DNA of 64,000 nucleotides from Chara braunii (lineage: Eukaryota > Plantae > Charophyceae), in contig BFEA01000003.1 of NCBI GenBank assembly GCA_003427395.1, forward strand, positions 3,940,440-4,004,439. The letters are read 5' to 3'. Position 1 is the first letter of the stretch, and each line of letters opens with the position of its first letter. Below are positions 6,995-48,015 of the stretch, piece by piece. The position numbers were made by a program, and so were the translations under genes. Under the pieces are notes generated by a model. That model did no database searches, had not been told where the DNA came from, and worked only from the letters and a program-made list of their open reading frames with translations.

Positions 6995-9193
6995 TGTCGG
7001 GCGGCTGCCTACCAGCCGATGTTTTTTTTTTCTTAAAAATGGGAAACATTTTCTTTCTTTGCTGTTTTTTGCGTGGTTTTGACGTATGCATGCGTGTGAG
7101 TATGCTGTTTTTGGATGTCCTCGGGGTTCCGGGCCTTCATAACTAACCCTTTGATTGACCGAAGTGGTGTTCCGAATCTTGGTCGCAAGCGGGCTCGGGC
7201 GGATCATGAAAGACGGGAGTTTTCGGAATCGGGAACTGAAAATGCGGGGCAGACGATGTACATCTGAATGGGCCTTGGACGGAACAAGAGCGGGCGGCCG
7301 GTAAAAGTCCAAAACTTCTGTCATGTGCATGGTCTGCGATGCCGGGTGATCGAATGGAACGTCACGATGGCCGACGCGATCCTGATGCTGAGGCCGCACC
7401 GGAAGGCGCCCACGGCCTCATGGTGCAAGTTAAAAGATCAGGAATAAAGAAATTAATGGCCTGCGAGGCGGGCTGGTCTACTATGAGCACGGATACTCCT
7501 CGCCGAAGGCACGAGCAGGGGCGTTCCATGCCCAAGAAGGGGCGTTGACCGAGTTGGGACAGATCACCACCAAATCTGGGAGGGGAAAACTACGGCGGCG
7601 GCCTGAGGCCGACCCCGTATCTAGGCGGTCTGGAATGGCCAGGTGTAAGAACCGCACGGAGGAAAGCGGAAGTCAAAGGGGAGAGGGGGCTCAGGCAGAC
7701 TCCGTTTTTCATCAGGGCAGCCAAAAGGCTAGTGGCGACACCAGGGCCTGGCGACTATGCCACCGGCTTGGAGGCCGACCTTTTGCATGCCATGAATATC
7801 CTGAACAGTGCCGCCCGACCTGCACCTTTTCGAACGATGCTGCAGAAATCCGGAGAATGAATGCTGCACGAAGCCGGGAACAATGGCTGACTGAGTAATC
7901 AAGCCAGTTGGGTACTCGCTTCGACGGCCGAAACTTGAAGGAGGTAGCGGCTGAGGAAGAAGAGAAGAACGGCCAATAGGCGAAGAAACGGCAGTTGGAG
8001 GAAAGGAACCGCTGACCGGCTGTCGGGAGGAAAGTGCACGGATTTTTGCAGGAGATCTTGGGCGAGCGGGTCTCGAGCAAAGAGCGGGGGGGTTTCTCGT
8101 GGGCTGAGAACAGCGGCGGGAAAACGGTTGAAGACGAGCGCCTCCACGCTCGCTAGCCTCCGAGGAAACGAAGAAGGAACGACGAATGAAAGGAGTGAGA
8201 TGGGAAATCTGAGGGAGAGAAGCCAGCGACCCGAGCGCGAAGAGGGATTGGATGGGAAAGAGAAGGGAGGATCGAGGGAGAGACAGCGGGAAGACGAAAA
8301 TTTCGCGAAAACCTCGAAAATCTCCCGCCCATACTAAAGCTATCACGACGCGAGCAGATAGAGTTGGCCGGGCCGAGAGTATATAAGGGGAAAAGGAGAG
8401 AAGGAGGGGGGCGCACGAAGAGCACGATCGGGAGCACGAGAGATTCTAAGTGCGCACAAGCGAAAGACGGTCTCGTACGGGGTAGCGCTCGGCGTCCAAG
8501 AGAAAAGGAGAGAGGGAGAGGTAAAGAAAGGGAGTTCTGCGCTCGTGCGCTCGAGAGAGAGAGGAAGAGAGCCCTCCGTTCGTGTGCTTGAGAGAGAGAG
8601 AAGGAGAGCCCCAAGCACGCGGGCTCATTCGAAAGGGGGAGAGGGAGAAGGAGAACTCTGCGCTCGCACGCTCGTTCGAGAGAGAGAGAGAGAGAGAGGG
8701 AAAGAGAGTTCCGCGCTCGTGCGTTCGAGGGAGGGAGAAGGAGAACTATGCGCTCGCACGCTNNNNNNNNNNNNNNNNNNNNNNNNNNNNNNNNNNNNNN
8801 NNNNNNNNNNNNNNNNNNNNNNNNNNNNNNNNNNNNNNNNNNNNNNNNNNNNNNNNNNNNNNNNNNNNNNNNNNNNNNNNNNNNNNNNNNNNNNNNNNNN
8901 NNNNNNNNNNNNNNNNNNNNNNNNNNNNNNNNNNNNNNNNNNNNNNNNNNNNNNNNNNNNNNNNNNNNNNNNNNNNNNNNNNNNNNNNNNNNNNNNNNNN
9001 NNNNNNNNNNNNNNNNNNNNNNNNNNNNNNNNNNNNNNNNNNNNNNNNNNNNNNNNNNNNNNNNNNNNNNNNNNNNNNNNNNNNNNNNNNNNNNNNNNNN
9101 NNNNNNNNNNNNNNNNNNNNNNNNNNNNNNNNNNNNNNNNNNNNNNNNNNNNNNNNNNNNNNNNNNNNNNNNNNNNNNNNNNNNNNNNNNNNN

Positions 9194-9268
<75 letters not shown>

Positions 9269-11463
9269 CGAGTTCCGCACCCGTGCGCTCGAGAGAGGGA
9301 GAGCTTTGAGCTCGTGTGCTCGTTCGAGAGAGAGAGAGAGAAAGAGAGGGAGAGAGAAGGAGAGAGAGAGGGCTCGGCATTCGCAGGACAGAGTACCTCC
9401 CGACCCAGACCAGAGGCCACTGGGGGAGGGAACAGGAAAGCTATTCGGGATTCGAGCAACTGAGCCACGGCTAGTGAGGAGAAGGCTCGGCTCCCTCGTT
9501 GGACCTGCTCACGCGCGCTCGGGCTCGGGGGAGTTCGAAAGCAAAGGAGGGGGAATGGGACGGTAGAAAGGAGGAAGAAGAAGGAGAGGCAGCGCTCGGG
9601 GGACGGAGCACAGAGATGCCATTATCGTACCCATGGTCAAGCATGGTAGCAATGGCCGCGGGCGGTCAGAAAAGGAAAAGAAACGAAGGGGAGGGGGCAA
9701 GTACCTGCTGAGTGGGGAGAACTAGGAAAACGAAAGGGGCGAGAAGGGGGTCTAGGGAAGGTGCGAGGCGTGCTCCTCAGTGTCGGCCGTAGTCTCGGCT
9801 AGTGGCCACAGCAAGGTCTCAAGATCAGCGCGCCGGGTTTTCGTCTTTCGAAACCACTTACTTCGAAGTTTGCCGGTTGCCGCTCTCCCGCTCGCCTGGC
9901 ATAGTCGCGAGCTCGGGGGCCGTTGTTTACTCCTTCGGGGAGCTGCCGAACTCTCCTATGAACAAGCCGTCGGCTACCGAACTCTCGCCGAGCCCGACTC
10001 GAAAGATTGGCAAAAGCCCCTCCCGGCAGCTCGCCGGTACATTATCGGCTCTCCCTGAGAGAACGCTGAGCTCATCGGGTCATCCGGTCGCTCGACAGTT
10101 CGAAGCTCAAGCCGCATAGGCACTGATTACTAGCTCGATTTGCGAAATCGCTGAGTCTGTCAGGTTAGCTGGTTACTTGCTTGCTTAATTGCTGCGATGA
10201 ATCAAGTTGTGTGGTCGCTGAGTCTTTCGGGTTCTCTGGTTACTCGTTCGATCGAAGTCAAGTTCCGGGCTCGCCNNNNNNNNNNNNNNNNNNNNNNNNN
10301 NNNNNCAAGTTCCGGGCTCGCCGGTCGCTCTTCGGTTACGAGCTCGATTTGCATAATTGCAGAGTTAGTCGGGTTCGCTGGTTACTTGTTTGCTTAATTG
10401 TTGTGATTGATCAAGTTGCATGGTNGCTGAGTCTGTCGGGTTCTCGGGTTACTCGTTCGATCGAAGTCGAGTTCCGGGCTCGCCGGTCGCTCGTCNGTTA
10501 CGAGCTCGATTTGCATAATTGCTGAGTTAGTCGGGTTCGCCGGTCACTTGTTTGCTAAATTGCTGTGATCGGTCGAGTTGAGTGGTCACTGAGTTCGTCG
10601 GGCTCCCTGGTTGCTGGTCCTTTCGAACTCAAGGTTCGCCGAGTTCACTAGTCACTCTTCGATTAACAAGCCCGATTCACGTAATTGCTGAGTTTTCGCT
10701 GCGAACACGATTTGCATAATTGCAGAGTTAGTCGGGTGCACCGGCTACTTGTTTGCTACGAGTTCGGGCTGTCTAATTGCTGGGTTTGTTGGGTTGGCTG
10801 TTACTCGTTCTGCCCAATTTGCGAAATCTGCTCGTTCAAAGCTGTAATTGCCGAATTTGTCAGTCGGTTTCACTGGTCACTTCTACGTTATGGGCTCGAA
10901 TCTGCGAAACTGCAAAGCCTGTCTAGCTCATCGGTAGCTCGAGTTCTAGTAGCTAAGTTGTCGGGATCTTCGTTTACTCGCTACATCTGAGCCGCATCGC
11001 TGAGCCTGTCACGCTCGCCGGTCGCTATCTCCTCTTCCCCCATCCGCAAGAGCGGTGAAACCAAGTCTATCGAGCTCGCTGGACATCCCTAAGAACGTTG
11101 AGCCTGAGTCTGTTGAACTCGAGTTTGTTGAGCTCACTGTTCATTGCAAGCCATATCAGGAAGATCGAAGAGTCTGTTACCCCCTCCTTATCGAGCTCTA
11201 ATCGCGAAATCGCTGAGCTCGTCGACTGCTCCCGCTAGGAGCCTAAACTCCTTTAGTTCTCGCTCGTCCCGAGCGCTACTCGCTGCGCTCGCTAAGTTCG
11301 AGGGTCAAGAGCCCCTCAGCAAGCTCGCTAGTCTTCGTCGTCGTTGAGCTTACCGGTGATTTTGGGGACATCCCCGGGCTTCAAGTGTGTCAAGAGGGCG
11401 ACCCGCCACTAGACACAAGGGGGGGGGCGGTTGGTCAGAAGGGGGTCGGAACTTCGCCCGACA
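6995..11463 (+). repeat. 5' LTR of host element (~4.5 kb incl. gaps)
   Basis: Starts TGTCGGGCGG and ends CGCCCGACA. Colinear with 45184-50258 except for an ~880-bp segment. Contains TATATAA at 8380-8386, (GA)n tracts and a tandem array at ~10130-10900. Confidence 0.95.
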
Positions 11464-11466: not shown

Positions 11467-11484
11467 TGGCGCCGTTGCCGGGGA
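11467..11484 (+). promoter_or_regulatory. primer binding site, tRNA-Asp type
   Basis: TGGCGCCGTTGCCGGGGA, 3 nt after the LTR end. It is complementary to the plant tRNA-Asp(GTC) 3' end ...TCCCCGGCAACGGCGCCA, the same PBS as Athila elements. Confidence 0.9.
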
Positions 11485-11958
11485 TGAGCATTTCTCCCGC
11501 GGCCGCAGCCGGCTCAGAAATTTGGTATAAGGGAGGACCAACGTGACAGGCAGCGGTGGGGCGAGTTTGGGGTATTTTCCATCATTCAGCATCGAGCACT
11601 TCAGCGCTCGACTTCAAGACGGTCGTCCTCGGCGTATCTGTTTTTTTCACCAGGTTCTGTTTTTCCTACAGGGTCATCGTCTGTTCCGGGGTTTTTTTTG
11701 GTGGTCGCGGTCCTTCTCGAGCCGCATCGGCAAGGGTTGTATTGGGGGCTTGGGTTTGGGCTTGTCGGGTGTGAGGGGCTTTGCGGTGTCGGGCTTCTCC
11801 TTGGTTTTTTTTTGCAGGTCCGCTCCTGCCCGCTTGCGACCTCGGCTCCCGCTCCCGGCCTCCGATGGGTAAAACAGGTCAGTTTTTCTTGTGTGAGTGC
11901 ATGATTTCGAGAGTGTTTATTTCTAAAAATTTAAAAATTAAGGGGGTGCATAGTTTGC

Positions 11959-12456
11959 TTGAGGGGTCTGATGAGGGGGAAAAACAACAAAAGGGTGGGA
12001 AGAAGAACCGTCCGAGAGAATAGTACGAGGGGGTCGGCTCAAGGGGGAGAGAGAGAGAGGTCGAGGGGAAGAGAGGAGAGAAGAGTCCGAGAGGGTCCGG
12101 GGGAGCTATCCATTTGGGACCCAAGGGGGTCGCCGAATATTCTTGACCCGCACGGGTTGTGGAGGGCGCCTACCCAAGGGCAAACTCACACACGAGAGGG
12201 AGTGTCTAGAAAGGAGTTCGGGCCTTCGGTCCTCGACCCGCAAGGGTTGTGGACGGGTTCCGTGCGAGAACCTACTCCCGCGAGGGGGCGGGATTCTCAA
12301 ATAGAGCCAGTTCGGTACTTGGTGGTGAGGGGAGTGGCACTCCGGGTATCGGGACAAGGGGGAGAGATAGACTCACCTACCGTTGTGAGAGAGGGGGTTA
12401 TAGAAGAGGAGGATACTTGGGGACCCATGGACGGGGGATCGGAGTCCGAGTCCTAG
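11959..12456 (+). CDS. possible leader ORF with internal repeats (WDPRGS / LDPHGLW / LDPQGLW)
   Basis: 165-aa ORF (first ATG 11971) in the purine-rich leader with a thrice-repeated motif. No recognisable homology. Confidence 0.3.
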   Translation: MRGLMRGKNNKRVGRRTVRENSTRGSAQGGERERSRGREERRVREGPGELSIWDPRGSPNILDPHGLWRAPTQGQTHTREGVSRKEFGPSVLDPQGLWTGSVREPTPARGRDSQIEPVRYLVVRGVALRVSGQGGEIDSPTVVREGVIEEEDTWGPMDGGSESES

Positions 12457-13098
12457 GTGGACCGGCGTCAAGCTGATTTCTTGGACTCGGACCTGGGGGA
12501 CTATTGGGATTATGGAAACGATTACTGAAGACCACAAGGTACGTATGCTTGTCTACTCAACCTGAGGGTCTCTTCTTAAAGCTCCGCTTTCCCGCCCCAC
12601 TTTTTTTTGACTCCCCGATTTGAATTCCTGTGATTCCAATGGAGAGGAGAGGCATCCGGAGGCGGAAAAGGGAGAAGGGAACGTTGTGCGAAGAGTTCAC
12701 GATGAGGAGAGTGGGAGGGAGTAGATAGGCTAGTGATCTCTGATAAATAGGTGGATCTTGTCCTGGGACCCAGGTAATTCCACGCTTGAGGTGGGCCGAG
12801 TAGAGGCGTGGTGCCGGATAGGCTAACTTAGGACTAGGGGTCTGTTCAGTGAGGGACATAGGACCCGGGTGTGCGACTTCGGTCCGACTTCCGGGGAGGG
12901 GGTTGCCACCCTTCCTCGGGGATAACCTGTGTCCGCGGCTAGTCTCTATGACGGGAGTGGGAAGGGGTCTCTCAGGGGGGGAGGACAGGAAGGTAGCCGA
13001 GTGAGCTCACAGGCTTCTTCTCCTTGCGGAATAGAAGTGGTCTATCGAGTGGCCAAAAAGAAACAGAAACTTAGAGATTTTTCTTTTGATTATATTGC

Positions 13099-13449
13099 AT
13101 GAGTTTGGAAGCCGTTCCAGAATGGATTAGCGTGTACACGTACAAGGGTGTGGACGTGTGGTGTTACACCTTTCGACTATGGACGGGTGATTTTGACGTG
13201 GGTGTCTACGGCGAAGAAGGGCTGGATCAAGGAGAGGATTTCCTTCATGGATGGGAGGAGGCGGTAGGCCACTCGCGCGGTGCAAGGGGGGAGTTGAGGG
13301 GTTACGGGTTTAAATACTTTTACTCTTTGGGTTACCGAACCTGCCCTAGAGGGGGGCGTCCGGCGCCGGTAGTTCCGGACGCTTATCTCGACGGATCGGA
13401 TGGGTTGAAGGTGCTAGTAGGGATCATAGAGAGATTGGCGGAGCGGTGA
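13099..13449 (+). CDS. accessory ORF H1 (family A), unknown function
   Basis: Intact 116-aa ATG ORF. Paralog of H2: DVWCYTFRLWT...EEG...WEEA.GH...YFYSLG.RT..RGGR..P.+PD.+LDGSDG. Confidence 0.75.
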   Translation: MSLEAVPEWISVYTYKGVDVWCYTFRLWTGDFDVGVYGEEGLDQGEDFLHGWEEAVGHSRGARGELRGYGFKYFYSLGYRTCPRGGRPAPVVPDAYLDGSDGLKVLVGIIERLAER

Positions 13450-13453
13450 CTCC

Positions 13454-13819
13454 ATGAGCTTGAGGGCTCTAGAGTTTGAACCTGCGGGGATTAGTGTAGG
13501 TGATCGAGGCGGAATAGACGTGTGCTGCTATACTTTTTATTGGTGGACTGACCATTTCGACATAGCCTTGTACGTAGAAGAAGGTGGGGATAGGGAGGCC
13601 GAATACTTGGATAGCTGGGAGGAAGCGGCCGGTCACGCGCAGCTCGAGAGGGAACTGCTAGGGGCTTGCAAGATACATTACTTCTACTCGTTGGGGTGTA
13701 GGACATATTCACGAGGGGGTAGGCATATTCCTACTATTCCGGACACCTTCCTAGACGGTTCGGACGGGTGGAGAGCGCTTGTTCAAATCATAGAGGAGAT
13801 AGTCCAAGGGGATGGTTAG
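13454..13819 (+). CDS. accessory ORF H2 (family A), unknown function
   Basis: Intact 121-aa ORF starting 4 nt after the H1 stop; aligns end-to-end with H1. Confidence 0.75.
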   Translation: MSLRALEFEPAGISVGDRGGIDVCCYTFYWWTDHFDIALYVEEGGDREAEYLDSWEEAAGHAQLERELLGACKIHYFYSLGCRTYSRGGRHIPTIPDTFLDGSDGWRALVQIIEEIVQGDG

Positions 13820-14553
13820 GATCGTAGAAGGCACTGAAGAAGAAGGGGTTCGAATAGAGAAAGCGGATTTAAGCAAGGAAAGGGAGTGCTTTAGTGTCCC
13901 TTTGGACCACTGCACTGAGAGATATGTGGCCGGACGCGAAAGAGGGTTAGAGCTAGAAAATGGGGTTTTTCTTTGGGCTCGGTTCGCGGTAGGCACTTGG
14001 GAAGGGGACAGGTGATCCCGGAATAGGCCCCAGTGCGGTAAGAGACCGAGACGAACGGTGGTCCGAGCAGAAGGGACTGTCTATCCAAGTAAGGAGGCCT
14101 GGGTGTATTACATCACCCACTTGGTCCTGGGTTGGTACCGTGCAGATCATTGGGAGGCTCGAGTGGGGCCAATTCTCAGGCAGATCTTTGAGGCGGAGTC
14201 CCTTCGACACCATCCACCCATTGAGGTGGGTAACTTACGCCCGAGACGAGGAATACCCTCGCGCCACAGGGTGCGTCCGGGCTATATTCCCATCTTTCGT
14301 TTTTCGGAGGATCGGCGGTAAGGAGGAGAGGTACGAGAGAGTTGTGTGATCCATAGTATGGGAAAGAGGGTGGCAGCTCTCTGCTAGGTCGCTCCATTGG
14401 TACTACACCTATTGCGTGGATAGCCCGGTACCATACGGGATCAAGGCCTGTAGGATTCGTGCGGGGATCTTTAGGGAATCAGCCCGGGACCGCGAGAGTG
14501 AAAGAGACTATGGATACCAAAGAGTCTTCGGGGTACCGCAGAGAATGTTCTAA
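13812..14553 (+). pseudogene. accessory ORF H3 (family B), interrupted
   Basis: ATG overlaps the H2 stop. Track ORFs 13812 and 14058 are in the same frame. After a frameshift it reads RSLHWYYTYCVDSPVP...GIFRE...YQRVFG, matching H4/H5, and ends TAA at 14551-14553. Confidence 0.65.
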
Positions 14554-14557
14554 ATGA

Positions 14558-15277
14558 ATGGTGTTCCATGATAGAGGGTAGAGACGCTTCTTAGAGTCCT
14601 CCTTAGAGGGCCATGAGACCCTTAGACTGATCCCTAGCAACGGGGAAGTCCCCGATTGGGAGAGGGTAGAAGGGGGAAGGTCCACGGTCAGTGGGGAATT
14701 CGTGTGGGTAGAGTCCAAAGAGGTCGAAAGTCGAGGGCTTGAGAGGAGTCTCGAAGTAACTGCGGTTATCTTCGTGGGCCCGGAGGCTTGGGCGAAGATT
14801 ATAGTACCCCTAGTTCTGGGACAAGGGGGTGGGCTGGATAGGTTGTTGCGGGAAGCAAGAGGAGTACGGGAGGAATGGATGAGTAGGGCTCGAGAGCGAT
14901 TTACGTTTGTGGCTATAGAGAAGGAGAGGTTCGCAGGGGATGGAGAGCTCCCTAGAGCATGCTATCCGTTGACCGTGAGGGTTCCATCCTTCTTGTTCCC
15001 GGGAGCAAACGAGGGAAAGATAGTAAGGTTTCTTGAGAGGGGTAGGTGTTTGGGACTACCCTTCAGGGCCCTGTGGACACTGTACACCCATTGCATCGAT
15101 CAGGGTGCCCCGCCACGTAGGAAGCTTTGGGGAATTTTTAGGAGATTGGGTTCTCTGGAAAAGCCCTGCGCTCTCTCTCCTGAAAATTATTGTCAGTGGG
15201 TCTTTAAGACCACGTTAGTAGATGGTGAGGTTCACACTCAGCGAGAACGGGGTGATACAGTCGACAGAGGCCGGTGA
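14558..15277 (+). pseudogene. accessory ORF H4 (family B)
   Basis: ATG 14558 is in frame with ORF 14702-15277, with one TAG at codon 8. Motifs: VWVES...LEVTAVIFVGPEAW...LVLG...LWTLYTHCIDQGAPPR. Confidence 0.7.
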
Positions 15278-15950
15278 CGCCGAGAAGGTTTGGGTTCCAG
15301 GGGACCCAAGAGTGACGCCCTACTGGATGAGTGTGGAGAAGGGGGAGGTCATTCGGGAAGGTGCGTACGTGTGGGTCAGGGCTCGCCAGCTCACCTGGAA
15401 GGAAGGGGTGCAGAGAGGGGGCCCGCCTGACCTTGGCCGATTCTTAGAGATTCGGGCTACGATCTTCCTCGGCGAGGAGGCGTGGACCGAAGTTTGGAGG
15501 GGCTTGGTAACCGGGCAACTAACGCATTTTGCGTACCGAGAGTCCGTGAGGTTAGTGGCAAACAACCTAGTGTTGGCTGACAACGAAGAAGGGACTTTCG
15601 AGTCTTGGACACTAGTGTCCTTCGCTGAGCCCGGTGAGGTCCCGCGTGCGTCAGAGATCCTTCACGCAAACTTTTCCAAATTCTTGACAGACTCATTTTT
15701 TAGAGACCCAAAGGCGCGGGTAGTGGAAGTGCTTAGGGCGGCTCGGGAGTCCGGGGTGCGGGCTAGGGGTTTGTATTGGTTCTACACACGGTGCGTGGAC
15801 GCGGGGGTGCCCCCAAGAGGGGAGTTGTCGGCTATATTCGAGAGGCTTAGAGAATTCGAAGGAATTAGGGCACACGTGGCTGACATCCCGTACGCCCGCC
15901 TATTCGGGGAAGAACAAGTGGCCAACCGAAAGGGTTTTGAGGGTCGATGA
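15222..15950 (+). CDS. accessory ORF H5 (family B), intact 242 aa
   Basis: VWVRA...LEIRATIFLGEEAW...LVTG...LYWFYTRCVDAGVPPRGELSAIFERL; paralog of H3/H4. Confidence 0.75.
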   Translation: MVRFTLSENGVIQSTEAGDAEKVWVPGDPRVTPYWMSVEKGEVIREGAYVWVRARQLTWKEGVQRGGPPDLGRFLEIRATIFLGEEAWTEVWRGLVTGQLTHFAYRESVRLVANNLVLADNEEGTFESWTLVSFAEPGEVPRASEILHANFSKFLTDSFFRDPKARVVEVLRAARESGVRARGLYWFYTRCVDAGVPPRGELSAIFERLREFEGIRAHVADIPYARLFGEEQVANRKGFEGR

Positions 15951-15963
15951 TAAGGAGGGTACC

Positions 15964-16699
15964 ATGATCTCTCTGGGCCTCGATAGCCCCCATAGAGGAT
16001 ACCGGGGAAATTGTCCAAGTCACCCTACCTAGAGCCAGGTTGGAAACGCAGACAAGGATTCTCTTAAGAGAAGAGGGGCAGATCCGCCGCAGGAGGGCTT
16101 TCGTACGTTTTGCGGTGAGTAGTGAGGGAGGAATAGTGATCGGGAAGGCCCAAATATTCCTCTCTAAGGAAGGGTACATAGAGATAGCATGTTGCCTGCA
16201 GACTTGGGAAGACCCTCTCTCGGACTCACGAGCTGTGAGGGGCCAGCTAGAGGAACTCGTGAGGGACGTGAGGCCTCACGAAGAGGGGCTAGTAGAATAC
16301 CGAGTGACCTACGGAGGGTGGGAGGAGATCCCACGATTCACCTCCAATGAGCCAGTGGGGGTCCCTCGTTTCATCTTCAAGCGGATCTATCCCTCCGAAG
16401 ACGTCGTAAGGGAGATAGGAAGGAGGGTGTCGATTCTAAGCTAGTTCCGGTTTACGGGGTCGGACCTGCACACCTTGCTGATGTGGTGCTTTCGGGATCC
16501 CTACAGGGATGATTGGTCGACTCTAGAAGACCTAGGGTATGCCTTTGAAGGCTGGGGCCGGGACGCGAGGGAAGCTAAGATATCGTGGAGGTACTTAGGA
16601 AGGCTCTGCGAAGGGGAGTTGGAGGGGTTAGACCCGTCGGCTCTCATTCGAGTCGCGATTGCCTGCCGCCGACGAAAGCTAGGGGATGACCGAGCCTGA
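15964..16699 (+). pseudogene. accessory ORF H6 (family C)
   Basis: ATG 15964, an early frameshift, then ORFs 16040-16444 and 16475-16699 in one frame. VRFAVSSEGG...KAQIFLS...EDPL matches H9. Confidence 0.65.
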
Positions 16700-16871
16700 C
16701 CTTGGCGAGCTCGTAGGGTTGGAGAGAGTAAGAGAAGAAATCCTTCGGATCCTCACTCTATGTTGGGAGGAAGAGAGAAGGGCTAGGCCTGGGTCCTTGG
16801 CTAGGATCAAGCTACTGGAGACGACTACGATTGCTATCATCGACGAGTTAAATATAGATCTTCTCGCGTAG
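16686..16871 (+). CDS. accessory ORF H7, 61 aa
   Basis: ATG overlaps the H6 stop and the ORF exactly fills the space before H8. Confidence 0.5.
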   Translation: MTEPDLGELVGLERVREEILRILTLCWEEERRARPGSLARIKLLETTTIAIIDELNIDLLA

Positions 16872-16880
16872 TAAGAGGTT

Positions 16881-17357
16881 ATGAGAGCTTCATTCTTCTC
16901 CGATAGGATTCGTTGGGAATTAGAGACCTGCGAGGAGGGTAGCGAAGTCAGGGTTGAGGGGAGTGCGGAACTTAACCCGGATCTGGGAGAGGGTCGAGTG
17001 ATCCGTGCCGAAAAGGAATTTCAAGTGGAAGTCTGACGGCTGGCCTTGTGGAAAAGGAGGAGCTGGACCACACTAGCTAGCTTTTCAGTCCGCATTCGAG
17101 GCATTAGTGGGGAGAGATTCCGGAGGACTTGGAGGGAGCCACTGCTGGAAGTGGAGAGAAGGTTCGAAGAGAACACCAGATATCTAGGCACCCTGCTAGC
17201 TTCTAGGATACACCTTGTGGAGACCCGATTCTGGGATAGGACGGGAGAATACGAGGAGGTTTTGCACCAAGTATTGCGCGAAGGAGGAGAAATCTAACAA
17301 ACTAGGTGTGAGGACTCGCTGGTAGAGGTTTCCGCAAGGTTGGCCGACGTGAGGTAA
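16881..17357 (+). pseudogene. accessory ORF H8
   Basis: ATG 16881 is in frame with ORF 17046-17297, with internal stops. It ends TAA at 17355-17357, 8 nt before the next ATG. Confidence 0.5.
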
Positions 17358-17365
17358 GGCTTCAG

Positions 17366-19658
17366 ATGATTAGGTACGACAGGGGGGACCCTATTGGTAC
17401 CATAGAAAGGGCTTGGAAATCGGGAGGAAGGTATGGAGTGACTCTCCCAAAAATTAGAGGGGAAGGAGAAGTGTCTACCGAGTTTTTCGAAATCTACGGG
17501 CAGGAGACTGTGGTCAGGTTCTCAGTAGTGTCTGAGGGAGGCAACTGCACTAGAAAGGCTGAGATCTTTTTGTCCCCCGACGATCGGCTAATCTTCGCGA
17601 CTGGATTAGCAGAAGGAAAGGATCCCCTAGGGATCGCCCGAAGAGCCCTAGATCGGTTGAGGAGATGAAGAGGGGGTAGTACCGGGAAGCGCGTGATTGA
17701 TAGAGCAGAGTACTGAGGGAGGTCAAAAGTTCCAAGGGCAGCTCACGGGAGAACTTGGGAGGTCCCAACCTGGGCCTACCGGCTACTCTACGTTGACGAC
17801 GCGACCGTAAGGAGAGTCAGGATTAGGGGACAACTGATTGAAAAGTTCCCGTTGGGCGAAGAAGGGGGACACGAGTTGTTCCCCCGGTGCTGGGAATCAC
17901 GAGAGGATACTGACTTTGAGTGGTCGGCTCTCGTGGGGGAATTCATAAAACCCCTATTTCGAGGAGAACCCGGAGAGGTGGATAGAGCATTGATCCAAAG
18001 GTGCGCTCAGGAAGGGATAAGGGAGATCTTCGACCTAGAAATAGCTAACCTAGCCTTGGTCGCTTGTGAAGAAAAGCGCGTGAGAGACTCTTGGTGGACA
18101 GTAACTAGCGAGGAGTCGGAGGAAGATAGTGCTAGCGAGAAATCGAGTGAGGAGAAGGAGGACTCAGAGGAGGGAGACGACTCGGAAGATAGCACAGACA
18201 ATAGAGAGGGAGACGATTCGGAAGATAACACAGACAATAGTGAGGGAGGCGACGAGAGATTACCGATAGGGTGCATGCAAAGTGAAGTGGAGGCTGGTTT
18301 CTCTCGTCCGCTGGAAACCGCTGAAAGAAGGGAGGTAGTAAAGGGCCCCGAGTTGGGGGCTAGGCTAAGTAGGGTAGTGGAAGAAATGACAGAAGGGATC
18401 GAATCAATGGGTAGGGCCGAGAGGGGCCCGGAAACGGCTCTAGGAGAAAGACAGGCCCCGGAGGGGCCGAGACCTAGCACGGAGGTACGGATGCACAGGG
18501 ATGTGGGGCTGCGGGCGTCGGTAAGCGAAGGGATCGCCGAAGCCTCGAGGGGCGTTCCAGTAGAGTCCCGGTGGGCGGACCTGGTGGACACGGAAGCAAG
18601 GATAGGGGAAGCTCCCGAATTTCCTTGAGGCAGGCCGGGGTATCGACCACCTAGGGGAGATGAAGAAGACGGTCCGGATAGTGGGGACTTAAGAGAAGGG
18701 AGGTCGGCGGAGGCCGGCGGCAGGCCACGAAGATGGGTCGAAAGGAACCCGGAGATCCTTTCCGGTGAAAGACAAGTTTCGGCGGAACAAAGAGTTAGCG
18801 TGGAGATGCGAATGCCAGTGAGAGAGGGGGCGGTCGAGGCCTCGAGGGGACTTCCTATAGAGTCTCGGTGGGCGGATCTGCCGGACGCAAGAATGGGAGA
18901 AGCACTAGAGTTTCCGAGGGATAGGGTAGGGTACAGGCCACCCAGGAGGGAAGAGGAAGGAGGACCGAATAAAAGGGACCTTAGAGACGAGAGGTCGGCA
19001 GAGGCTGGCGGTAGGCCACGGAGATGGGTCGAGAGGGAATTAGACACTGCATGGGTTCTCGAGGAAGCAACGGGGAGGAGTCAAGGGGTAGATGCCTGGA
19101 GAAGCTTTAGGGGGCAAGACCATGCTCAGTGGGAGACGGAGTGGTCGAATGAGAGAGGTCGCTACGGAAGATCCCTGGGGACCACCAAGACCCCGGCCGC
19201 GGGTTGAGGAGTCGGACCCCTCGTGGTACAAGCCGTACGATCCGGTAATTGACGGACCCATGGAAGGACCCTATTTTCATCGGTACGATGATCGAAGAGT
19301 TCCCTACTACGATGTCAATCTGAACCTAGAGGCGCTTTTCTTTGATGGGCGTGATGTAACCGGGTTCGTCGAAAAATGGAAGAGTTATGCTTACCGTAAG
19401 AAGTTCTCCGAAAAAGAATGGATAGACCATTTCATCCAGCACTCGGACCCGGAATTAGACCCTGCAATAAGGGCTATCTACCTGGCGGATGGTCGGTGGA
19501 GGACATTCAAAAGAGGTCTTCTACGGACCTTTGCGTGTGATGACTTAATCCCCACCATAGACGGCTTGCGTCGTGTCACAAGGGGGGATCGGGAAAGTTT
19601 GGTGGCCTTCACCCGAAGGTTTAAACGCTTGTCTCAAGCCCTGGTGGATAGAGGGATG
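17366..19658 (+). pseudogene. gag: family-C domain (H9) + acidic linker + duplicated ~100-aa repeat + gag N-terminal/capsid region, truncated by nested element
   Basis: ORFs 17366, 17852 and 18800 share one frame; then a frameshift leads to FDGRDVTGFVEKWKSYA...WIDHF...ESLVAFTRRFKRL, homologous to nested gag FKGCGITEYIEKWELHA...ESVRVFGKRFRKV. Confidence 0.75.
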
Positions 19659-20408
19659 AACACAGTCAAATTTCGGCCTTGACAACCCCGCAGTATTCTC
19701 CTCGGATCAAGAACATCGAACCTGCCCTCGGAGAAGGGGCAAATACATCCTCGGCCCGTCTGTACTTCTCCAGATTATTAAGAACGAAACTGTTGCATAG
19801 TGGTGAAGCGAAAGAGAGAACCGTGAGGGAGGGAGAAAAAAAACAGAGAGATAGAGAGAGGTACAAATAGAGAGGGAAAAAGGAAACGATGATTAAATAG
19901 AAAAGGAAAGAGACAACAGAAAAAGAGAGAGAAAGAGTACATCGAGAGAAAGAGAGAGAGAGGGGCGGCATATCATAAATAAAGTTGACAGAGAAAACTC
20001 CTTGTTGTGGATCTCTCTGAATTGCGAGTTGACTGTTGGAACTCACTGTAAGGTGAACTTGTGGAACCTCTTGCTGACTGCAAAAACTCGTTGTTGTGCA
20101 AACTCGTCGCATTACTATTTGATTACTGAAACTCGTTGCTGATTGAAACTTGTCGTTTTATCAGTTCACTGTCGAAACTCTGGGTTGCACGAATTTGCAG
20201 CACTATCTGTTGACTGTTGAAACTCTTTGTCGCAGGAAGTCGCTAAATTACAAAAAGAAAGAAAAGAAAAATAGGTAGCGTGGCGGTACGCCTTCAACCT
20301 TGGCCGCTGCTGGTCGCCGAGGACCTCGGAAGTGGGCGAGGCGAGTCACAGGCGTCGTGGCCCCTGGCCTCAACGAACAGTAGGTGCCCCTCCCCGGGTT
20401 TCCTCACA
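19659..20408 (+). repeat. 3' remnant of nested 5' LTR
   Basis: About 750 bp, highly similar to 38483-39230, joined directly to host gag with no TG start. Confidence 0.9.
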
Positions 20409-20412
20409 ACTT

Positions 20413-20430
20413 TGGAGCCGTTGCCAGGGA
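20413..20430 (+). promoter_or_regulatory. primer binding site, tRNA-Asp type (2 mismatches)
   Basis: TGGAGCCGTTGCCAGGGA, 4 nt after the LTR end ...CCTCACA. Confidence 0.85.
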
Positions 20431-22333
20431 GGGGAACAGCACCCCCAAGGCCTTGGCCTTCCCCAATCAAACGGGGGTGCGCTGTCTGATTAAGCCAGGT
20501 GGTAGCTAGCTTAATTAGTTTGATTAGTAGATTTTTCTAAATTAGTTTTTTTTAAATATTTTCTGATCCGCACGTTTTCGCGTAAACTTCGCAGGGAGCA
20601 AAGTTCATCCTCTCAACGAGGCGAGCATTTTGGTATGTTTTTTGAAAAATTCTAACGGTGAAAAACAGAGATATTGATTTCTTTTGTGTCTTTCTAATTT
20701 TAATTTTGGAAATAACAAATTTTGGTTTTTATTATTTTTTTGCAGATAGAAGCAAAACCTGGCCTACCCTTCCCAGACCAAAGTTGGTCCTTATATTTTT
20801 CCCGACATTTTGGGACATTGGTCGGGAAAAACGGACGCTGTTTGAATTAACAGCGAGAACGAACAGATAAGAAAAGAAAATATAAATGAAAGGATTATTT
20901 GAGTTTTTAATTTTTTTGAAATTTCATTTAAAATTAAATCAAAAAAAAATAAACAAAAGTAATCCGATAGGATTACTCTTTGAACTTATAAGAATACAGA
21001 AAAAAAAATTCTACTATAATCAAGGGTTTGTGGTGAGCGCGTGAGCGCGCGCAAGAACCCAAGACCCTAATTAGAGAAACCCTAGTGAGGCGAAACCCTA
21101 ATTAGGGGCTTAGGGATCACTTACAAACCCGAAAATTATAGTCAAAGGATATAAGTGCGGAAACCGAAAATCTTGCATCTCTCCAAAATTTTGAATATTT
21201 TATTGATAAAAATTAGTTAAAACTGATAAAAATAGTTATTTTTCTCTTATAAATTGTCTGTAATTATTTTCGCAGCATTCTCGGACAGCGGATTTGGGGA
21301 CAATTGTCTCGAACCCCATCCCCACGGGGGAAGGGAAATTGCTATCAAAAATTTCCACTTTTCTATTTTTCTTGAATTATTCTCGATTTAATTATTAAAA
21401 ATCTTTAAAAATCCAGCAAAAATCTGAAAATTATTTTAGGAATATTACTTATATTTTATTTCACCAGTGGTGACTTCGTAGGCCTTCGGCCGAGCCCGAT
21501 CCCAACGGGGGGAGGCGAAGCGCTGCCAAAATTTTTGGAAAATTATAACAATTCATTTGGTTCTCAAGAAATCATTAGATTTTGCACAGAGATACATATA
21601 GAGGATACTAATATATGTAATACAAGACAGGGAATATATCTTGGTGGAATATAATTTATCTGAATTAAAAATAGGAAAATAGGGGAAAATTCCCTAACTA
21701 AGGTAAGAAAAGGGGAATTGAAGTGACGAAAGGCCCAGTTCGTTCCATGACCTCTTCTTGAGGGGTAGCTACCATCACGAAGATTTTCCGATAATTAAAA
21801 TTATTTAGATATAAATTAAAATAAATAGTAAGGCACTGCTGGGAGAAGAAATGTACTTGCCAACACATTTTCTAGGGGTAACCTAGCGTACTCCTAGATC
21901 TTGGAGTAGGGCCAGTGAGTTCCTCAAGGTTAAAAGTAATTTTAAAGTAATTAAAATTATTAAAATCCCGTAAAAATATAAAAGTGGCAAAACAAATAAA
22001 AGAAAAAGGGCTAAAGGTTTAAAAATTTGCTACTTAATTAGGAGGTGACCTCCGTACCACAAAGGGTCGGCCAGAGGTGCCGCAGACTGGGTTCCCTCGA
22101 ATAGAGCACACGCTTTATATTCGAGGGAACTCGGATATCGAACTTTTTGAGGCCATTCGGGGCCGGTTTTTGGTTCCATTGTGTCTTTGGACATTCTAGG
22201 GAAAGGTTAGGGCCGTATTGGCAGCGTTTAATCGGGGCTCCCAACGAAGGGAGGCGAAGCGCAGCCGAATTTTTTAAGGATTTTGTGTCATTTCTCGCTC
22301 ATTAGCTGCCTAACCTTTCGAGTATTCAGTCGG

Positions 22334-23350
22334 ATGTGGCCCCCAGCGCCGATAGAGATCTACGAGGCTACCCGCGCTTGGGACATAGAGCCTCCGGAGC
22401 TCATAGAGGGAGACTTAGTCGAGTTCACAATCCCTGACAGAGCTACCGATCGTATTGACGGACAGTTTGGGTGGAGATCCGTCGTCCTATCGCCTAACAC
22501 GTGGCTTTGGACACATAGGGAGGTCAGGCCAGGACAGGAGAGGGGCCTTGTGAGAGGCTACCTGTACCTAGGACCGCACGTGGCCAAGGAGGCCGCTCTG
22601 AGTTTGGTGACCACGGGCGAGAGTGACGCGATCGGCGTAGCCCTACGGTGCCTGCGGGACAAGGTCACCACGTTTCGGGCTGACGACGCGCACGACGCTT
22701 TGACATTATGCCATGGACGGCTTCCCCTCAGTATTGGTAGCGAGTTGGTGATAGCTCGGGACTGATCTTTCCCGTATGGCACCACGTGTCTGAGGGCGGT
22801 GATCCCCGGTTTCATCGTAGACTCCGTCTTTGGGGGTATAGGTGGGTTAGTCGAGGCCTACTTGGCATTCCGAGATCTGGAGACCCTCGCCAAGGGGTAT
22901 AGGGACCTAGACTACCTGTACTACTCCCTTGTGATTGGAGGACTTCATTGGGGAGACGGGAGGGTTCAGCTTGTTGAGCTGATTCGCTCGGTAGACGACG
23001 AGTGGCCCCAGGCTTTGTGCGTTTGGGATTGGCTGGACCGCGAGCTCCGAGCGGGTCCTGAGTACGTGACCTGCATCGGGAGGCTTTTCTCTGACGATTG
23101 GGGTGGCTGGTGGAGCGAGGACGCTGGACAGCCTCTGATGTACAGCCACCATCTGACACGGTACTATCAGGTTCTAGGCCAGGCCCCATATCGCGTCGAG
23201 GACGAGTTCGACGACGAGGGGTGGGAGCGTGAGGACGACGAGGAGGCCTGGGAGCCAGACTGGATTGATTCGGAGAGTGAGACCGACGAGGAGGAGATCG
23301 ATACCACCGACGCCCACTTCCCGAGGATAGGGGTCGCCGTCCGGACCTAG
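22334..23350 (+). pseudogene. accessory ORF N1 (family B-like) with acidic tail
   Basis: ORFs 22283-22765 and 22799-23350 are in the same frame, separated by one TGA. Motifs: EFTIP..WRS...WLWT...YLYLGP...LVTTG...IPGFIVDSVFGG...QLVELIR. Confidence 0.7.
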
Positions 23351-23429
23351 GAGGCAGACACGGACGAGACGTGAGTGGTGACTGAGAGGATGTCGTGATT
23401 GGTGTCGACAGGTAGCAGCAAGCGGTTCG

Positions 23430-24310
23430 ATGGTAGAGCAGGCTGATAGGGTAGAGCTCGAGATCGGCAGTGCCAGATGGCCTAAACCTCCTGAGGTAGT
23501 GGAGCCTGACGTGCTGGAGTTTGATTTGCCGGTTAGGAGCGTAGCTGAGTCCGGGCTTCACTCCGCCTGGAGATCGACGCGATTTGGACCAGATGTGCAC
23601 TTGTGGTCATATGCGATTGAGACGTATCAGCCAGATGCTCAGCGTTGGCGAGCGCCGGGGACAACGATCCTCGAGGTTATAGGGCATATCCATTACTCTC
23701 GCTCAATGAGAGCCACGATTTTCTTTGAGGGTCTGGTGCATGGGTTCTGGTGCTGTGAGCAGGAGGCTAGAGCGATTCTATCTGAACAGGCGGATAACAT
23801 CCGGGCTGCTAGTGAGGTTTTTCACGACCCGATTAGGAAGGTGAGGATGACCCTCCGGATAGGGGGGGCTTTTGCTTTTCCCTCGGTGTGACTGCGAGTG
23901 AGACTTCCTTAGTTCGTAGTGGAGGAGCTCTGGGGACTGACTCACATTGCCAAGACTTAGACAGACTGAGGAGGGGCTTGGCAGATCGCGATTGGATCTC
24001 GTACGCTCAATTCATTGGGGGACCGTTCACAGGCGAGAGAGGTATTCAGCTCGTAGAGTTTATACGAGCGCTAGCGCCTTCTGGAGAGCAGGATTCCTCG
24101 TACACATATCAGCCCTTGGAGTTCTGGCTAGCTTTAGAGAGAGAGGCCCTGAGACCGGTTGAGTATCTGGAGGGTCTAGGCGCATTACTGAGTGAGACGC
24201 GCGAGGACAGGCTTGCTCCCCTTATTCCGTCTTGGGAGATAGAGGCACATTATCAGCAGGGACACCCAGAGGGAGTGGATCTTGGGTGGTACGCCGAGGA
24301 TAGAGAGTGA
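23430..24310 (+). pseudogene. accessory ORF N2 (family B-like)
   Basis: EFDLPVR..WRS...HLWSY, a frameshift near 23890, then IGG..GERGIQLVEFIR...LERE...EY, aligning with N1. An acidic tail continues in frame to ~24490. Confidence 0.7.
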
Positions 24311-24490
24311 GAGACCGCAAGTGATATAGAGCCTTGGGGAGAGCAGGACCAGGGCTGGGGAGACCTGGTGATAGAGGATCGCCAGGAGCCGGTAGGAGAG
24401 GTAGCACCGCAGGAGGACGGCTGGGGGCATCTAGCTCAGGCCGAGGGACTGGAGGCCATCCCTTGGGGACGAGGGGATGAGGACGAGGAT

Positions 24491-24859
24491 ATGCTAGATG
24501 TGAGAGACGATTAGAGACTAGGCATATCCGCGTGTAGCATAGATAGGAGATTAGTGGTGAGACAGTTACCAGGCGCGAGAGATAGCTTCAGAAAATACGG
24601 GTTATGTGACGCGACGACAGAGATGGCGGATAGAGACACGTTGAGAGTGACGCTTTCCGTACGACAAGATAGGACGGAGGGCTGGGAAGATGAAGTGATG
24701 GATAATGTCGCACAGCGAATCAGGCTCATGACCGAGCATGCCTTAGCGTTACGAAGAGGTCAGAGATACATTGAGTACACTATCTGCTTCCATGGAGCTG
24801 ATGGGAGGGTGCACAACACTTACTCGACTGTATTGAGCTTGAGTGGTAGGATGGCCTGA
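24491..24859 (+). pseudogene. accessory ORF N3 (possibly family E)
   Basis: ATG 24491 is in frame with ORF 24554-24859, with one TAG. Weak resemblance to N5/N6. Confidence 0.5.
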
Positions 24860-24902
24860 GGAGCTGGTAGGATCGAGAGGTTGAGAGCACAGGCGTAAGG
24901 TA

Positions 24903-25652
24903 ATGAGGAGCGACTCAAGCGCATGGTGGGCGTATATCCTGTTGAGAGACTCAAACTCCTACAAAGTGAGGAGACTAGTCGGGCCTAGGGAGACTGCGCT
25001 CGGATTCGACATACCTCTTCCTGTGAGATTGGTGGATAGCGACAGGGTACCACTCGAGTATGTGGGAACGTGGATAGAGGAAAGAGTATTTCTCTGGACG
25101 ATAGTTGTAGCGGTTAGAGAACTGAGACGTGAGAGGCGGGAGGAACTGATAGGACATCTTATCTTTGATCGAGTGCGAGAGGTTGGAGTAGGACTGACAC
25201 TAGTCGGGATTGGAAGGAGCCTGTGGAGATATGAAGCTTTGGCGAAAGCTCTTCTGACTAGAAAAGCGAGACTGATAGTAGGAGACAATCAACCGCAGGT
25301 GCGTATCGTGATCAGGCCCCCGGAGCAGGATCTTCATCCTGTACAGGGCTGGAGATGGGCCCTTCCTCCATTCGTGATTGACCAAGTATACGGAGGGGTT
25401 AGGAGCCTAACGCGAGCGGTCCACCATACGCACTTGGCTCTTGGATCGGGGTTGGCACCGCGGTTCAAGGAGGCTTATTTCGCTGTTAGTTTGCGGTGGA
25501 GACGCTTTGATGACGAAGAGCTAAGAAATCTAATAGACATGTCCTGCTGGGTAGACTGTCTGAGACCGGTTGACTTAGTCGAATACTATCGGAGACGCGT
25601 GGAGGAGAAGTACGTTGGACTAGAAGACTTGAGGAATTTATTCAGGGAGTAG
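24903..25652 (+). CDS. accessory ORF N4 (family B-like), intact 249 aa
   Basis: GFDIPLPVR...VFLWTI...LIGHL...LPPFVIDQVYGG...LRPVD aligns with N1/N2. Confidence 0.75.
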   Translation: MRSDSSAWWAYILLRDSNSYKVRRLVGPRETALGFDIPLPVRLVDSDRVPLEYVGTWIEERVFLWTIVVAVRELRRERREELIGHLIFDRVREVGVGLTLVGIGRSLWRYEALAKALLTRKARLIVGDNQPQVRIVIRPPEQDLHPVQGWRWALPPFVIDQVYGGVRSLTRAVHHTHLALGSGLAPRFKEAYFAVSLRWRRFDDEELRNLIDMSCWVDCLRPVDLVEYYRRRVEEKYVGLEDLRNLFRE

Positions 25653-25657
25653 GAGAT

Positions 25658-25939
25658 ATGCCGGGTCGTAGATCAACTGGGATCGAGGTAAGCAGGCAGT
25701 TAGTGAATGAGGGGTTCACGGTTACGGTACTACTCAGAGCGAGCATAGAGGACAACCTGACTGAGCAGGAAAGTATTCTACAAGCCAGATAATTTATTCG
25801 GGAATACAGACCGGGCGTTCTCGAATGCGTAACCTTTCAGACCAAGATATAGTACGAGGTAATGGTGTGGTCAGCAGGGTACCTACGCGCTGAGTTGTTC
25901 TTTGATGAGACGGTAGCAAAAGCTAGGAGTAGAATATGA
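25658..25939 (+). pseudogene. accessory ORF N5 (family E)
   Basis: ATG 5 nt after the N4 stop. Manual translation after a frameshift gives SRQLVNEGFTVTVLLRASIEDNL...YEVMVWSAGYLRAELFFDETVAKARSRI*; paralog of N6. Confidence 0.6.
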
Positions 25940-25948
25940 GCCCCGGAC

Positions 25949-26381
25949 ATGACAGAGCACGAGCAACAACTGTATCGATACAGACCTAGAGCCTCGTATT
26001 CGCTCCGGTGGGACCACAGGGGATCCGACCCCTGGAGGAGCGTGAGTGAGAGGAACCCCCGAGTAGCTACTCGAGGGATTGAGACGAGGAGTCTCTCTTC
26101 TCGACGACGTCTTCCCTACGCTCGGGTTGTCTCTAGGCAATTAGCGTGTGACAACGAGACCCTACAGATTCTCTTGAGGGTGAGCATAGAAGAAGAACTG
26201 TCAGACCGCGAGTTCAAAGAACTTGCAGAAGATGTTATATGGGAGTAGAGAGTTGGAGCGCTGAGGGAGTTGACGATACAGAACCTGGGTAGTATATGAG
26301 GTGATCGTATGCGTTAAAGGAAGAGTGCGCTTGGAGATAATTCAGGACGAGACACCCGCAGAGGCTCGAAGCAGTATGTGA
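25949..26381 (+). pseudogene. accessory ORF N6 (family E) with N-terminal gag-derived peptide
   Basis: SRQLACDNETLQILLRVSIEEEL...YEVIVCVKGRVRLEIIQDETPAEARSSM*. The N-terminal SYSLRWDHRGSDPWRSVSERNPR matches gag at ~29935-30000. Confidence 0.65.
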
Positions 26382-27256: not shown

Positions 27257-27274
27257 ATACCTCATGGATAAGGG

Positions 27275-27772: not shown

Positions 27773-27781
27773 CATGAGGGA

Positions 27782-28584: not shown

Positions 28585-28592
28585 CTGACTCT

Positions 28593-47924: not shown

Positions 47925-48015
<91 letters not shown>

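Follow-up and report, generated by a model that had tools for sequence, protein, structure and literature searches.

The host element in the analysed window of Chara braunii DNA (the whole stretch of 64,000 nt) is a 23.7-kb Ty3/Gypsy retrotransposon in which eight accessory ORFs are packed stop-to-start between the primer binding site and gag. From the LTR into gag, ATG triplets were avoided in each of the three sense frames, and the same was observed in a nested element of another family that interrupts the host gag. Based on these features, the small genes and gag of the host element probably share one RNA driven by the LTR, on which leaky scanning and reinitiation would act in relay.

Organisation of the two elements

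Direct LTRs with an adjacent primer binding site, as in Ty3/Gypsy elements, were present, and the domain order was Gag-PR-RT-RH-INT in both elements, the Gag matches being weak (E 0.009, to Retrotrans_gag in the host, and 0.11). The best non-Chara pol matches were mostly 30-37% identical. The host primer binding site, which we take to be of the tRNA-Asp type, presumably resembles that of the Athila clade. The host flanks showed no match over 5 bp as a target-site duplication, and the ends of the nested element were ambiguous. Outside the array the elements are loosely built (LTRs of ~4.5 kb, leaders of 1.6-1.9 kb, a 3' region of 3.6 kb). An ATG at 41529 was considered as a restart for pol but rejected, a -1 frameshift site being preferred.

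Table 1. Features of the host and nested elements (positions in the window)
Feature	Position	Strand	Remarks
Host 5' LTR	6995..11463	+	~4.5 kb, N gaps inside; 93-95% identity to 45184-50258
Primer binding site	11467..11484	+	Motif adjoining LTR end
Host leader	11485..13098	+	1.6 kb; five acceptor-like sites; 9 ATG (expected 14.7)
ORF1	13099..13449	+	116 aa, family A; P0009 has same start
ORF2	13454..13819	+	121 aa, family A; gap +4
ORF3	13812..14553	+	Family B; overlap -8; similar to ORF5 (z 16) and ORF4
ORF4	14558..15277	+	Family B; gap +4; start common to P0122, P0124
ORF5	15222..15950	+	242 aa, family B, intact; overlap -56; start common to P0126
ORF6	15947..16699	+	Family B; ATGA overlap -4; P0125 alignment begins at Met 15947, one frame
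ORF7	16686..16871	+	61 aa; overlap -14; basis is the sequence only
ORF8	16881..17357	+	~158 aa; gap +9; putative start; P0122, P0031 cover region in one frame
Gag ORF, 5' part	17366..19658	+	Gap +8; P0019, P0128 start at 17366
Nested Ty3/Gypsy element	19659..39231	+	19.6 kb; 750-bp LTRs 94% identical; PR, RT, RH, IN; inserted in host gag
Nested accessory array	22334..28584	+	~11 ORFs including own tandem paralog pairs
Host gag 3' part and protease	39232..41565	+	Asp_protease matches; alignments of other copies
Host RT-RNase H-integrase	41514..44632	+	-1 frame relative to protease
Host 3' LTR	45184..50258	+	Pairs with 5' LTR, 93-95% identity

Caulimoviridae, which lack integrase and LTRs and encode a movement protein, were rejected as an assignment since integrase and LTRs are present. 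The Chbra elements of Chara, presumably large LTR elements without integrase, were rejected likewise since both elements carry integrase domains. An additional archaeal-type RNase H in pol defines the Tat/Ogre clade (excerpt of PMC6317226); both pols matched RT_RNaseH families only, and Tat/Ogre membership was rejected because neither has a second RNase H.

By alignment, ORF3 to ORF6 are paralogs of the Gag N-terminal domain (z 26 for ORF6), and ORF1 and ORF2 are 50% identical end to end; the array arose by tandem duplication of ORF1/2 and of ORF3-6 with the Gag N-terminal domain. Because four of them are free copies of that domain, the Gag particle is the most likely target or partner of the accessory proteins. 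The 5' part of Gag itself consists of the family-B N-terminal domain, an acidic linker, a second Met at 18275 and the Gag core. Sequence comparison detected no similarity between the nested and host arrays.

No transactivator was found among the accessory ORFs by family matches, low-confidence folds, structure searches or PDB sequence searches, the best E value of the last being 0.63. Searches of these ORFs against Pfam and PHROGs yielded no meaningful match, and profile searches matched only named Chara gene models and the protein called on the relative L001. For ORF5, there was no homolog of similar length, none in viral contigs and no usable Atlas match. The predicted folds were of low confidence (pLDDT 38.9 and 41.5), and the best structural match, to the C-terminal domain of eIF2B-epsilon (Z 6.3, rmsd 4.1, 111 aligned), was rejected as noise level for helical bundles. 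Atlas feature matches of the Gag N-domain were to Gag-labelled clusters at 0.82-0.85 and are taken as leads only.

Junctions and integrity of the accessory ORFs

The window copy has decayed, and four of the eight accessory ORFs carry stops private to it: one in-frame stop in ORF4, two each in ORF6 and ORF8, and stops plus a frameshift in ORF3. ORFs 1, 2, 5 and 7 are stop-free, so that several ORF ends are putative. Gag of this copy has two stops, across both of which six proteins from other copies (P0019, P0127-P0131) continue.

All 13 stop/ATG gaps (eight host, five nested) listed in the earlier note were reproduced exactly, with amendments at ORF5/6, at the last ORF and for gaps that had been omitted. 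The ORF6 start, placed at 15964 with a gap of 13, was moved by the P0125 alignment to the ATG at 15947. The ORF at 17366 is no 100-aa gene; the long Gag ORF, which continues in the six other-copy proteins, begins there. The nested array, described as similarly tight, is so at the five gaps listed; a further five, of 79, 108 (an uncertain ORF), 43, 38 and 167 nt, had been left out. The argument that there is no room for separate promoters fails because promoters can sit inside upstream coding DNA.

At seven of the eight host junctions, which span -14 to +9 nt, ATGA included, the upstream stop has an in-frame ATG no more than 20 nt away. The chance of this is P ~5e-4 at a generic Met rate of 2.2% and ~1e-9 at the array's own rate. 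Six of the 11 nested junctions are also within 20 nt, and the counts are the same (7/8 and 6/11) for a limit of ~20-30 nt. On one other DNA contig, read by hand, an ATGA overlap joins an ORF1/2-type 3' end to the start of ORF2; the coupling thus persists with a different spacing.

The ORFs are supported, by sequence comparison, as separate, selected genes rather than a broken polyprotein. In the relative L001 (75% identical, gapless), third-position substitutions switch frame inside the ORF4/5 overlap, and dN/dS values against it were 0.14 for ORF4 and 0.08 for ORF5, indicating purifying selection; the ORF5 ATG is absent from L001. The start Met is common to other copies at five of nine host starts, and the nested-array start at 25658 is common to P0082; ORF7 and the ORF7/8 boundary are without support from other copies. 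That the array is a mutated polyprotein, or that its spacing and low ATG content are a translationally meaningless by-product of tandem duplication and base composition, is very improbable. The decay of the window copy would suit this explanation, as would the in-frame junctions (ORF7/8 and four tight nested ones) and the Met-poor family-B domain within Gag. However, selection changes frame at ORF4/5 without an indel, the paralogs align start to start, and the ATG avoidance is synonymous, strand-specific and also present in the non-coding leaders. For ORF4/5, the polyprotein reading is considered largely refuted by these comparisons.

Avoidance of ATG ahead of gag

Before gag, the observed/expected ratio of ATG was 0.59 in the host (46 against 77.8) and 0.61 in the nested element (80 against 131.7), with boundaries at 10000 and 20000 picked after inspecting ATG windows; predefined regions gave 0.61, 0.66, 0.23 and 0.77. 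In gag-pol the ratios were 1.13 (host) and 1.17 (nested); the minus strand gave 1.26 and 0.96. Among the 64 triplets, ATG ranked first in depletion in the nested leader and in the nested array, and second in the host leader plus array. ATG windows contained few ATGs in the host 5' LTR from ~10000 onward, and the Gag region from 17666 to 18274 contained none.

Internal Met accounted for 4/1398 and 15/1796 codons, compared with 45/2186 and 38/1755. Avoidance extended to synonymous choices out of frame, at NAT|G (45/139 versus 93/170, P 9e-5) and at NNA|TG (18/119 versus 32/90, P 9e-4). Both ORF halves were depleted, with observed/expected counts in the 5' and 3' halves of 12/23.4 and 10/19.0 (host) and 25/35.5 and 11/25.0 (nested). 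Synonymous shuffles of single ORFs reached significance in only one of 12 accessory ORFs, as well as in one of four pol controls. Between 13099 and 17365, 25 non-start ATGs remain, seven of them in strong context, and no bias towards out-of-frame ATGs opening unusually short ORFs was found. A -3 purine together with a +4 G is present at one of ten host starts. The avoidance is partial yet significant in all frames, and internal AUGs are depleted as in RTBV. In tungro/badnaviruses and algal bicistronic mRNAs, such avoidance is the hallmark of leaky scanning.

Translation of the array

The earlier proposal that the ORFs are translated from a shared RNA is retained for scanning, to which the three-frame, sense-strand ATG avoidance ending inside gag points; its calicivirus-type coupling was not borne out. 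In the relay, 40S subunits would load at the cap in the LTR and pass the weak starts of upstream ORFs, and some of those that had completed an ORF would begin again at the start of the following one, a few bases off. ORF5, with its -56 overlap, would be reached by ribosomes that bypassed the ORF4 start. Initiation of Gag would be at 17366, with 18275 as a possible second site, and RT-RH-IN would be made via a -1 frameshift after the protease. One RNA with many ORFs is supported rather than shown. Of the RNA runs, which were of low depth, two gave reads only at a GA repeat, and a third gave 225 divergent reads in both directions, tracking DNA depth; a transcript covering the array was not seen among them.

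A difficulty for the one-RNA model is that gag would receive few ribosomes after pure leaky scanning over 7-8 kb; the tested viral case covers 900 nt (excerpt of PMC5902531). This yield problem is escaped if separate mRNAs serve each gene or small group of genes, produced by alternative splicing of the leader or from internal start sites, with the upstream ORFs avoiding ATG because they act as leaders for mRNAs further downstream. The acceptor-like sites of the two leaders (five and four), a donor-like site at the ORF8 stop and automated models of other copies that join accessory ORFs to gag/pol, presumably via predicted introns, would fit such mRNAs, and the staggered transcripts of baculoviruses are a precedent. 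However, no acceptor-like sites precede the host accessory starts, the three in the host array falling within ORFs, and ATG avoidance is equally strong in the 5' halves of the host ORFs. The gene models disagree on the ORFs joined and look ab initio, and at low depth no joint was RNA-supported among the 15 listed of 28. Separate mRNAs, the chief competing reading, are regarded as rather unlikely.

Strict termination-reinitiation with little leaky scanning, through a calicivirus-like 18S tether or a CaMV-like element-encoded transactivator, would suit the tight host junctions, and caulimovirid ORFs are joined likewise (excerpt of PMC5902531). It leaves the ATG avoidance within ORFs unexplained, no ORF resembles a known family, and no common structure was seen near the junctions (1/28 windows at z -2.5). 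The search for 18S-complementary motifs upstream of the stops showed no enrichment: TGGGA, which we take to be the calicivirus-type core although it may not fit Chara 18S, occurred at one of 14 junctions against a background of 23%. The -56 overlap and the gaps of 38-167 nt exceed the limit of ~30 nt given in an excerpt of PMC10275272. Overall, this mechanism is considered improbable. A Shine-Dalgarno-like signal was dropped (9/14 against a background of 40%, P 0.06), its best example being ORF6 codons. A scan for shunt-type hairpins gave no windows with z < -2.5 in the host leader and seven in the nested leader.

The relay of scanning and restart remains the preferred reading. Its fullest form, which is put forward tentatively and a little short of an even expectation, is that a Chara lineage of giant Gypsy elements has a genuine eukaryotic operon, in which one nuclear RNA would yield 9-12 proteins, with Gag as the last of them, by scanning and restarting over 7-8 kb; the array would have grown out of duplicates of the Gag N-terminal domain, and one of these free-standing genes may tune start-codon choice or reinitiation. 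Scanning and restart over 7-8 kb is several-fold beyond any tested case.

As commonly described, LTR retrotransposons make Gag and Pol via frameshifting or splicing and carry at most one or two extra ORFs. In the literature searched, no translation of many proteins from one RNA was found for LTR retrotransposons of the Chara type. The earlier view of such coupling as highly unusual in a retrotransposon has to be qualified, since SART1, also a nuclear retrotransposon, has stop-start coupling (excerpts of PMC10275272 and PMC5902531); it is, however, a non-LTR element with two ORFs and requires a downstream hairpin, which was not seen at 13 of 14 Chara junctions. RTBV and badnaviruses likewise place small, closely joined ORFs, kept free of internal AUGs, before the replication polyprotein (excerpt of PMC5902531), with leaky scanning of ORFs I-II. 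RTBV spans two ORFs and 900 nt, compared with 8-11 ORFs, 4-6 kb and a long leader in the Chara elements, in which avoidance is partial and LTRs and integrase are present. CaMV, with TAV-activated reinitiation, resembles the array in its long run of ORFs, joined by short gaps or overlaps, on a single, reverse-transcribed RNA, but no TAV-like protein was identified in the Chara elements, and a review (PMC5902531) knows no such activator outside Caulimoviridae. The TURBS systems of caliciviruses and influenza B share AUGA-type junctions but comprise two ORFs only, whereas in Chara the motif is not enriched and some spacings are out of range.

Chlorophyte bicistronic nuclear mRNAs show ATG ratios of 0.43-0.49 upstream of the last ORF and normal values in it (excerpt of PMC11291117), a depletion of similar size to that in the Chara elements, although they are host genes, mostly with two ORFs, in another algal lineage. 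In size (~24 kb), LTRs of up to ~5 kb and extra ORFs, the host element resembles OTA (Ogre/Tat/Athila) elements and planarian Burro (excerpts of PMC6317226 and PMC6431247); in these excerpts the extra ORFs of Ogre number 1-2 and Burro encodes a single huge polyprotein, compared with 8-11 ORFs in Chara. The plant OTA survey, as excerpted, counted only extra ORFs of at least 250 codons, for which the host ORFs (61-250 aa) barely qualify.

With 8-11 selected genes before gag in two families whose arrays lack detectable similarity, ribosomes need a route to gag across kilobases of coding sequence. If the relay is correct, polycistronic translation of the viral kind would also operate in nuclear LTR elements, here in an alga closely related to land plants. 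Arrays of this sort are overlooked by gene callers and by the usual ORF-length cut-offs. The Chara junctions would provide natural tests of the limits of scanning and reinitiation, and may be of use in multi-gene expression cassettes.

The two elements and their copies

One record matches the pol protein of the window at 100%, and the nearest named relatives of that protein are gene models of Chara braunii, which places the sequence in this streptophyte alga. Both elements encode protease, RT, RNase H and integrase, arranged as in Gypsy. Without its insert the host element is 23,691 bp long and the nested element 19,573 bp, with LTR pair divergences of 4.3% (part of the LTR measured) and 5.4%, respectively. 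One DNA run yielded 3553 contigs aligning to 10900-19700, mostly 85-95% alike; this depth does not equal copy number. Related copies of the host family are numerous. The contig L001 (1-1261), filed among metagenome sequences, is not microbial but represents a diverged copy of the host element.

LTRs of the host and nested elements
Feature	Position	Strand	Basis
Host element 5' LTR	6995-11463	+	self-comparison
Host element 3' LTR	45184-50258	+	self-comparison
Nested element LTRs	19659-20409 and 38483-39231	+	self-comparison

At the protease/RT frame change, a U-rich slippery-type heptamer was seen in both elements (31824-31860 and 41543-41580), followed in the nested element by a hairpin, and the end of P0122, a gene model from another copy, coincides with that of the host protease frame. 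A -1 frameshift is therefore likely to lie after protease, not between gag and protease, in both. The nested pol is separated from the 3' LTR by 3.6 kb (34884-38482) lacking a long sense ORF and including an 84/166-bp tandem array (37430-38250). Two parts of the nested leader, 20750-21125 and 22025-22175, are strongly structured (z -3 to -7) and are candidate packaging or shunt elements. The host gag is interrupted at 39642-40167 by AT-rich sequence bearing imperfect inverted repeats, which may be the insertion of a small DNA transposon, and a third, more distant Gypsy-like pol occupies 57600-59700 on the minus strand.

The Chara genome paper is said to describe an integrase-less 'Chbra' family. 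Literature searches of a mostly open-access library, read at the level of titles and abstract openings, found no paper on multi-ORF arrays in Chara LTR elements. PMC7264820 sites most extra ORFs between pol and the 3' LTR; both arrays here lie upstream of gag.

Junctions and coding status of the accessory ORFs

All 13 stop/ATG gaps reported in the earlier note were reproduced in the sequence. The values stood; the ORF6 start and the identity of the ORF at 17366 did not, and five wider gaps of the nested array had been left out. ORF6 starts at 15947, where its ATG and the ORF5 stop overlap as ATGA: the gene model P0125 aligns from this Met across ORF6 without a change of frame. At 17366 lies the Gag start: P0019 and P0128 begin at this Met, and two stops of the window copy in the 5' part of Gag are read through by P0019, P0127, P0128, P0129, P0130 and P0131. 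The corrected host junctions are +4, -8, +4, -56, -4, -14, +9 and +8 nt, seven of the eight within 20 nt (P ~5e-4 at the ordinary Met rate). ORF7 as a whole and the start of ORF8 are putative. The host copy in the window is decayed, with in-frame stops in ORF3, ORF4, ORF6 and ORF8; at those checked (14347 and 14579 by contigs; ORF6, ORF8), other copies carry a different sequence, as judged from contigs or proteins.

The alternative of one continuous polyprotein frame was contradicted by comparison with other copies. L001 aligned to ORF4 and ORF5 without gaps at 75% identity, with mismatches by codon position of 35/23/77 when counted in the frame of ORF4 and 42/21/106 in that of ORF5; the position favoured by mismatches changes over within the overlap. 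The dN/dS values were 0.14 (ORF4) and 0.08 (ORF5), compared to 1.3-2.4 in the wrong frames. L001 kept a stop at the ORF4 stop position, plus an earlier one; the ORF5 ATG was absent from L001 and present in P0126. Of the nine host starts, five (13099, 14558, 15222, 15947 and 17366) coincide with a Met in gene models from other copies, as does nested start 25658; because these automated models fuse accessory ORFs to gag or pol, they were used for their aligned stretches alone. In a single-copy-depth contig, the end of an ORF1/2-type gene and the ORF2 start overlap as ATGA (table read by hand). These comparisons indicate that the accessory ORFs are real, selected, separate genes and not a polyprotein.

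ATG avoidance and translation

Passage of ribosomes through the ORFs would be expected to select against stray ATGs, and these were depleted. In predefined regions, observed/expected was 0.61 in the leader and 0.66 in the array (starts included) of the host element, and 0.23 in the leader and 0.77 in the array of the nested element, compared to 1.09-1.24 in gag and pol. In sliding windows over both elements the depletion set in within the 3' portion of the LTR, was confined to the sense strand and stopped in gag; with boundaries picked after this result, pooled counts were 46 vs 77.8 expected (host) and 80 vs 131.7 (nested). Internal Met stood at 0.29% in the host and 0.84% in the nested array (comparison values 2.1% and 2.2%). 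Synonymous choices creating an out-of-frame ATG were also avoided (45/139 vs 93/170; 18/119 vs 32/90), so protein composition is not the explanation. Shuffling ORF by ORF, a weaker test, gave a significant result in only 1 of 12 cases. Depletion was incomplete, with 25 non-start ATGs left in the host array, 7 in strong context; many may reflect recent decay, since only two of six in the stretch common to the window copy and L001 were present in both. We regard the array as bearing a clear sequence signature of ribosome scanning through the ORFs.

Host depletion extended to Met 18275, in the Gag frame and preceded by 600 nt without ATG. P0032 begins at this Met and P0125 carries it, which suggests a second, shorter Gag without the family-B domain.

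In RTBV and badnaviruses, leaky scanning is described as resting on upstream ORFs that contain no AUG (PMC5902531); depletion in the host and nested arrays is partial. Algal bicistronic mRNAs are marked by ATG ratios of 0.43-0.49 upstream of ORF2 (PMC11291117). The earlier note had proposed leaky scanning or termination-reinitiation as in caulimoviruses and caliciviruses; the scanning signature supports the former indirectly, and calicivirus-type coupling was not supported. TURBS coupling spans roughly 30 nt (PMC10275272), and the -56 junction and nested gaps of 38-167 nt lie outside this range. No structure common to the junction flanks was found by folding. The TURBS core, an 18S-complementary motif, occurred at 1 of 14 junctions. 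The best-fitting model is a mixed scanning relay: ribosomes would scan leakily through the array ORFs, and reinitiation would add its share at the tight junctions, since leaky scanning needs no tight junctions and the elements are not compact elsewhere. The main rival is that splicing or internal starts supply the ORFs; acceptor-like sites are present in the leaders and a donor-like one overlaps the stop of ORF8, but none of the host accessory starts is preceded by an acceptor-like site. For the scanning relay, we infer both the exact mechanism and a single transcript. The same literature searches, at title and abstract level, found no paper on polycistronic scanning in an LTR retrotransposon.

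Searches covered 6-13% of each of three oligo-dT RNA runs. Two yielded 30 and 26 reads, almost entirely on a GA repeat. From the third came 225 reads in both directions, with 0 at 99% identity and 0 of the listed joints covered by RNA; its depth tracked DNA depth (Spearman 0.60, 30 bins). The three runs together were uninformative on transcript structure.

Origin of the array proteins

ORF1 and ORF2 were 50% identical over their full length. Chained shuffle-tested alignments (300 pairs) and shared motifs placed ORF3, ORF4, ORF5, ORF6 and Gag residues 1-240 in one family (family B), with z of 26 for ORF4-5, 26 for ORF6-Gag, 16 for ORF3-5 and ~6 for between-group links. Similar-length, viral-contig, Atlas and profile searches found no homologs beyond Chara models and L001, and family searches and predicted folds gave neither a family nor a reliable fold, and nothing for or against the reinitiation transactivator raised in the earlier note. 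No convincing similarity between host and nested arrays was found among the 300 pairs (best cross pair z 6.9). The nested array has duplicated pairs of its own, and one of its ORFs begins (25949-26110) with sequence similar to part of the Gag of the nested element itself, so that Gag appears to have contributed to array genes in this element as well.
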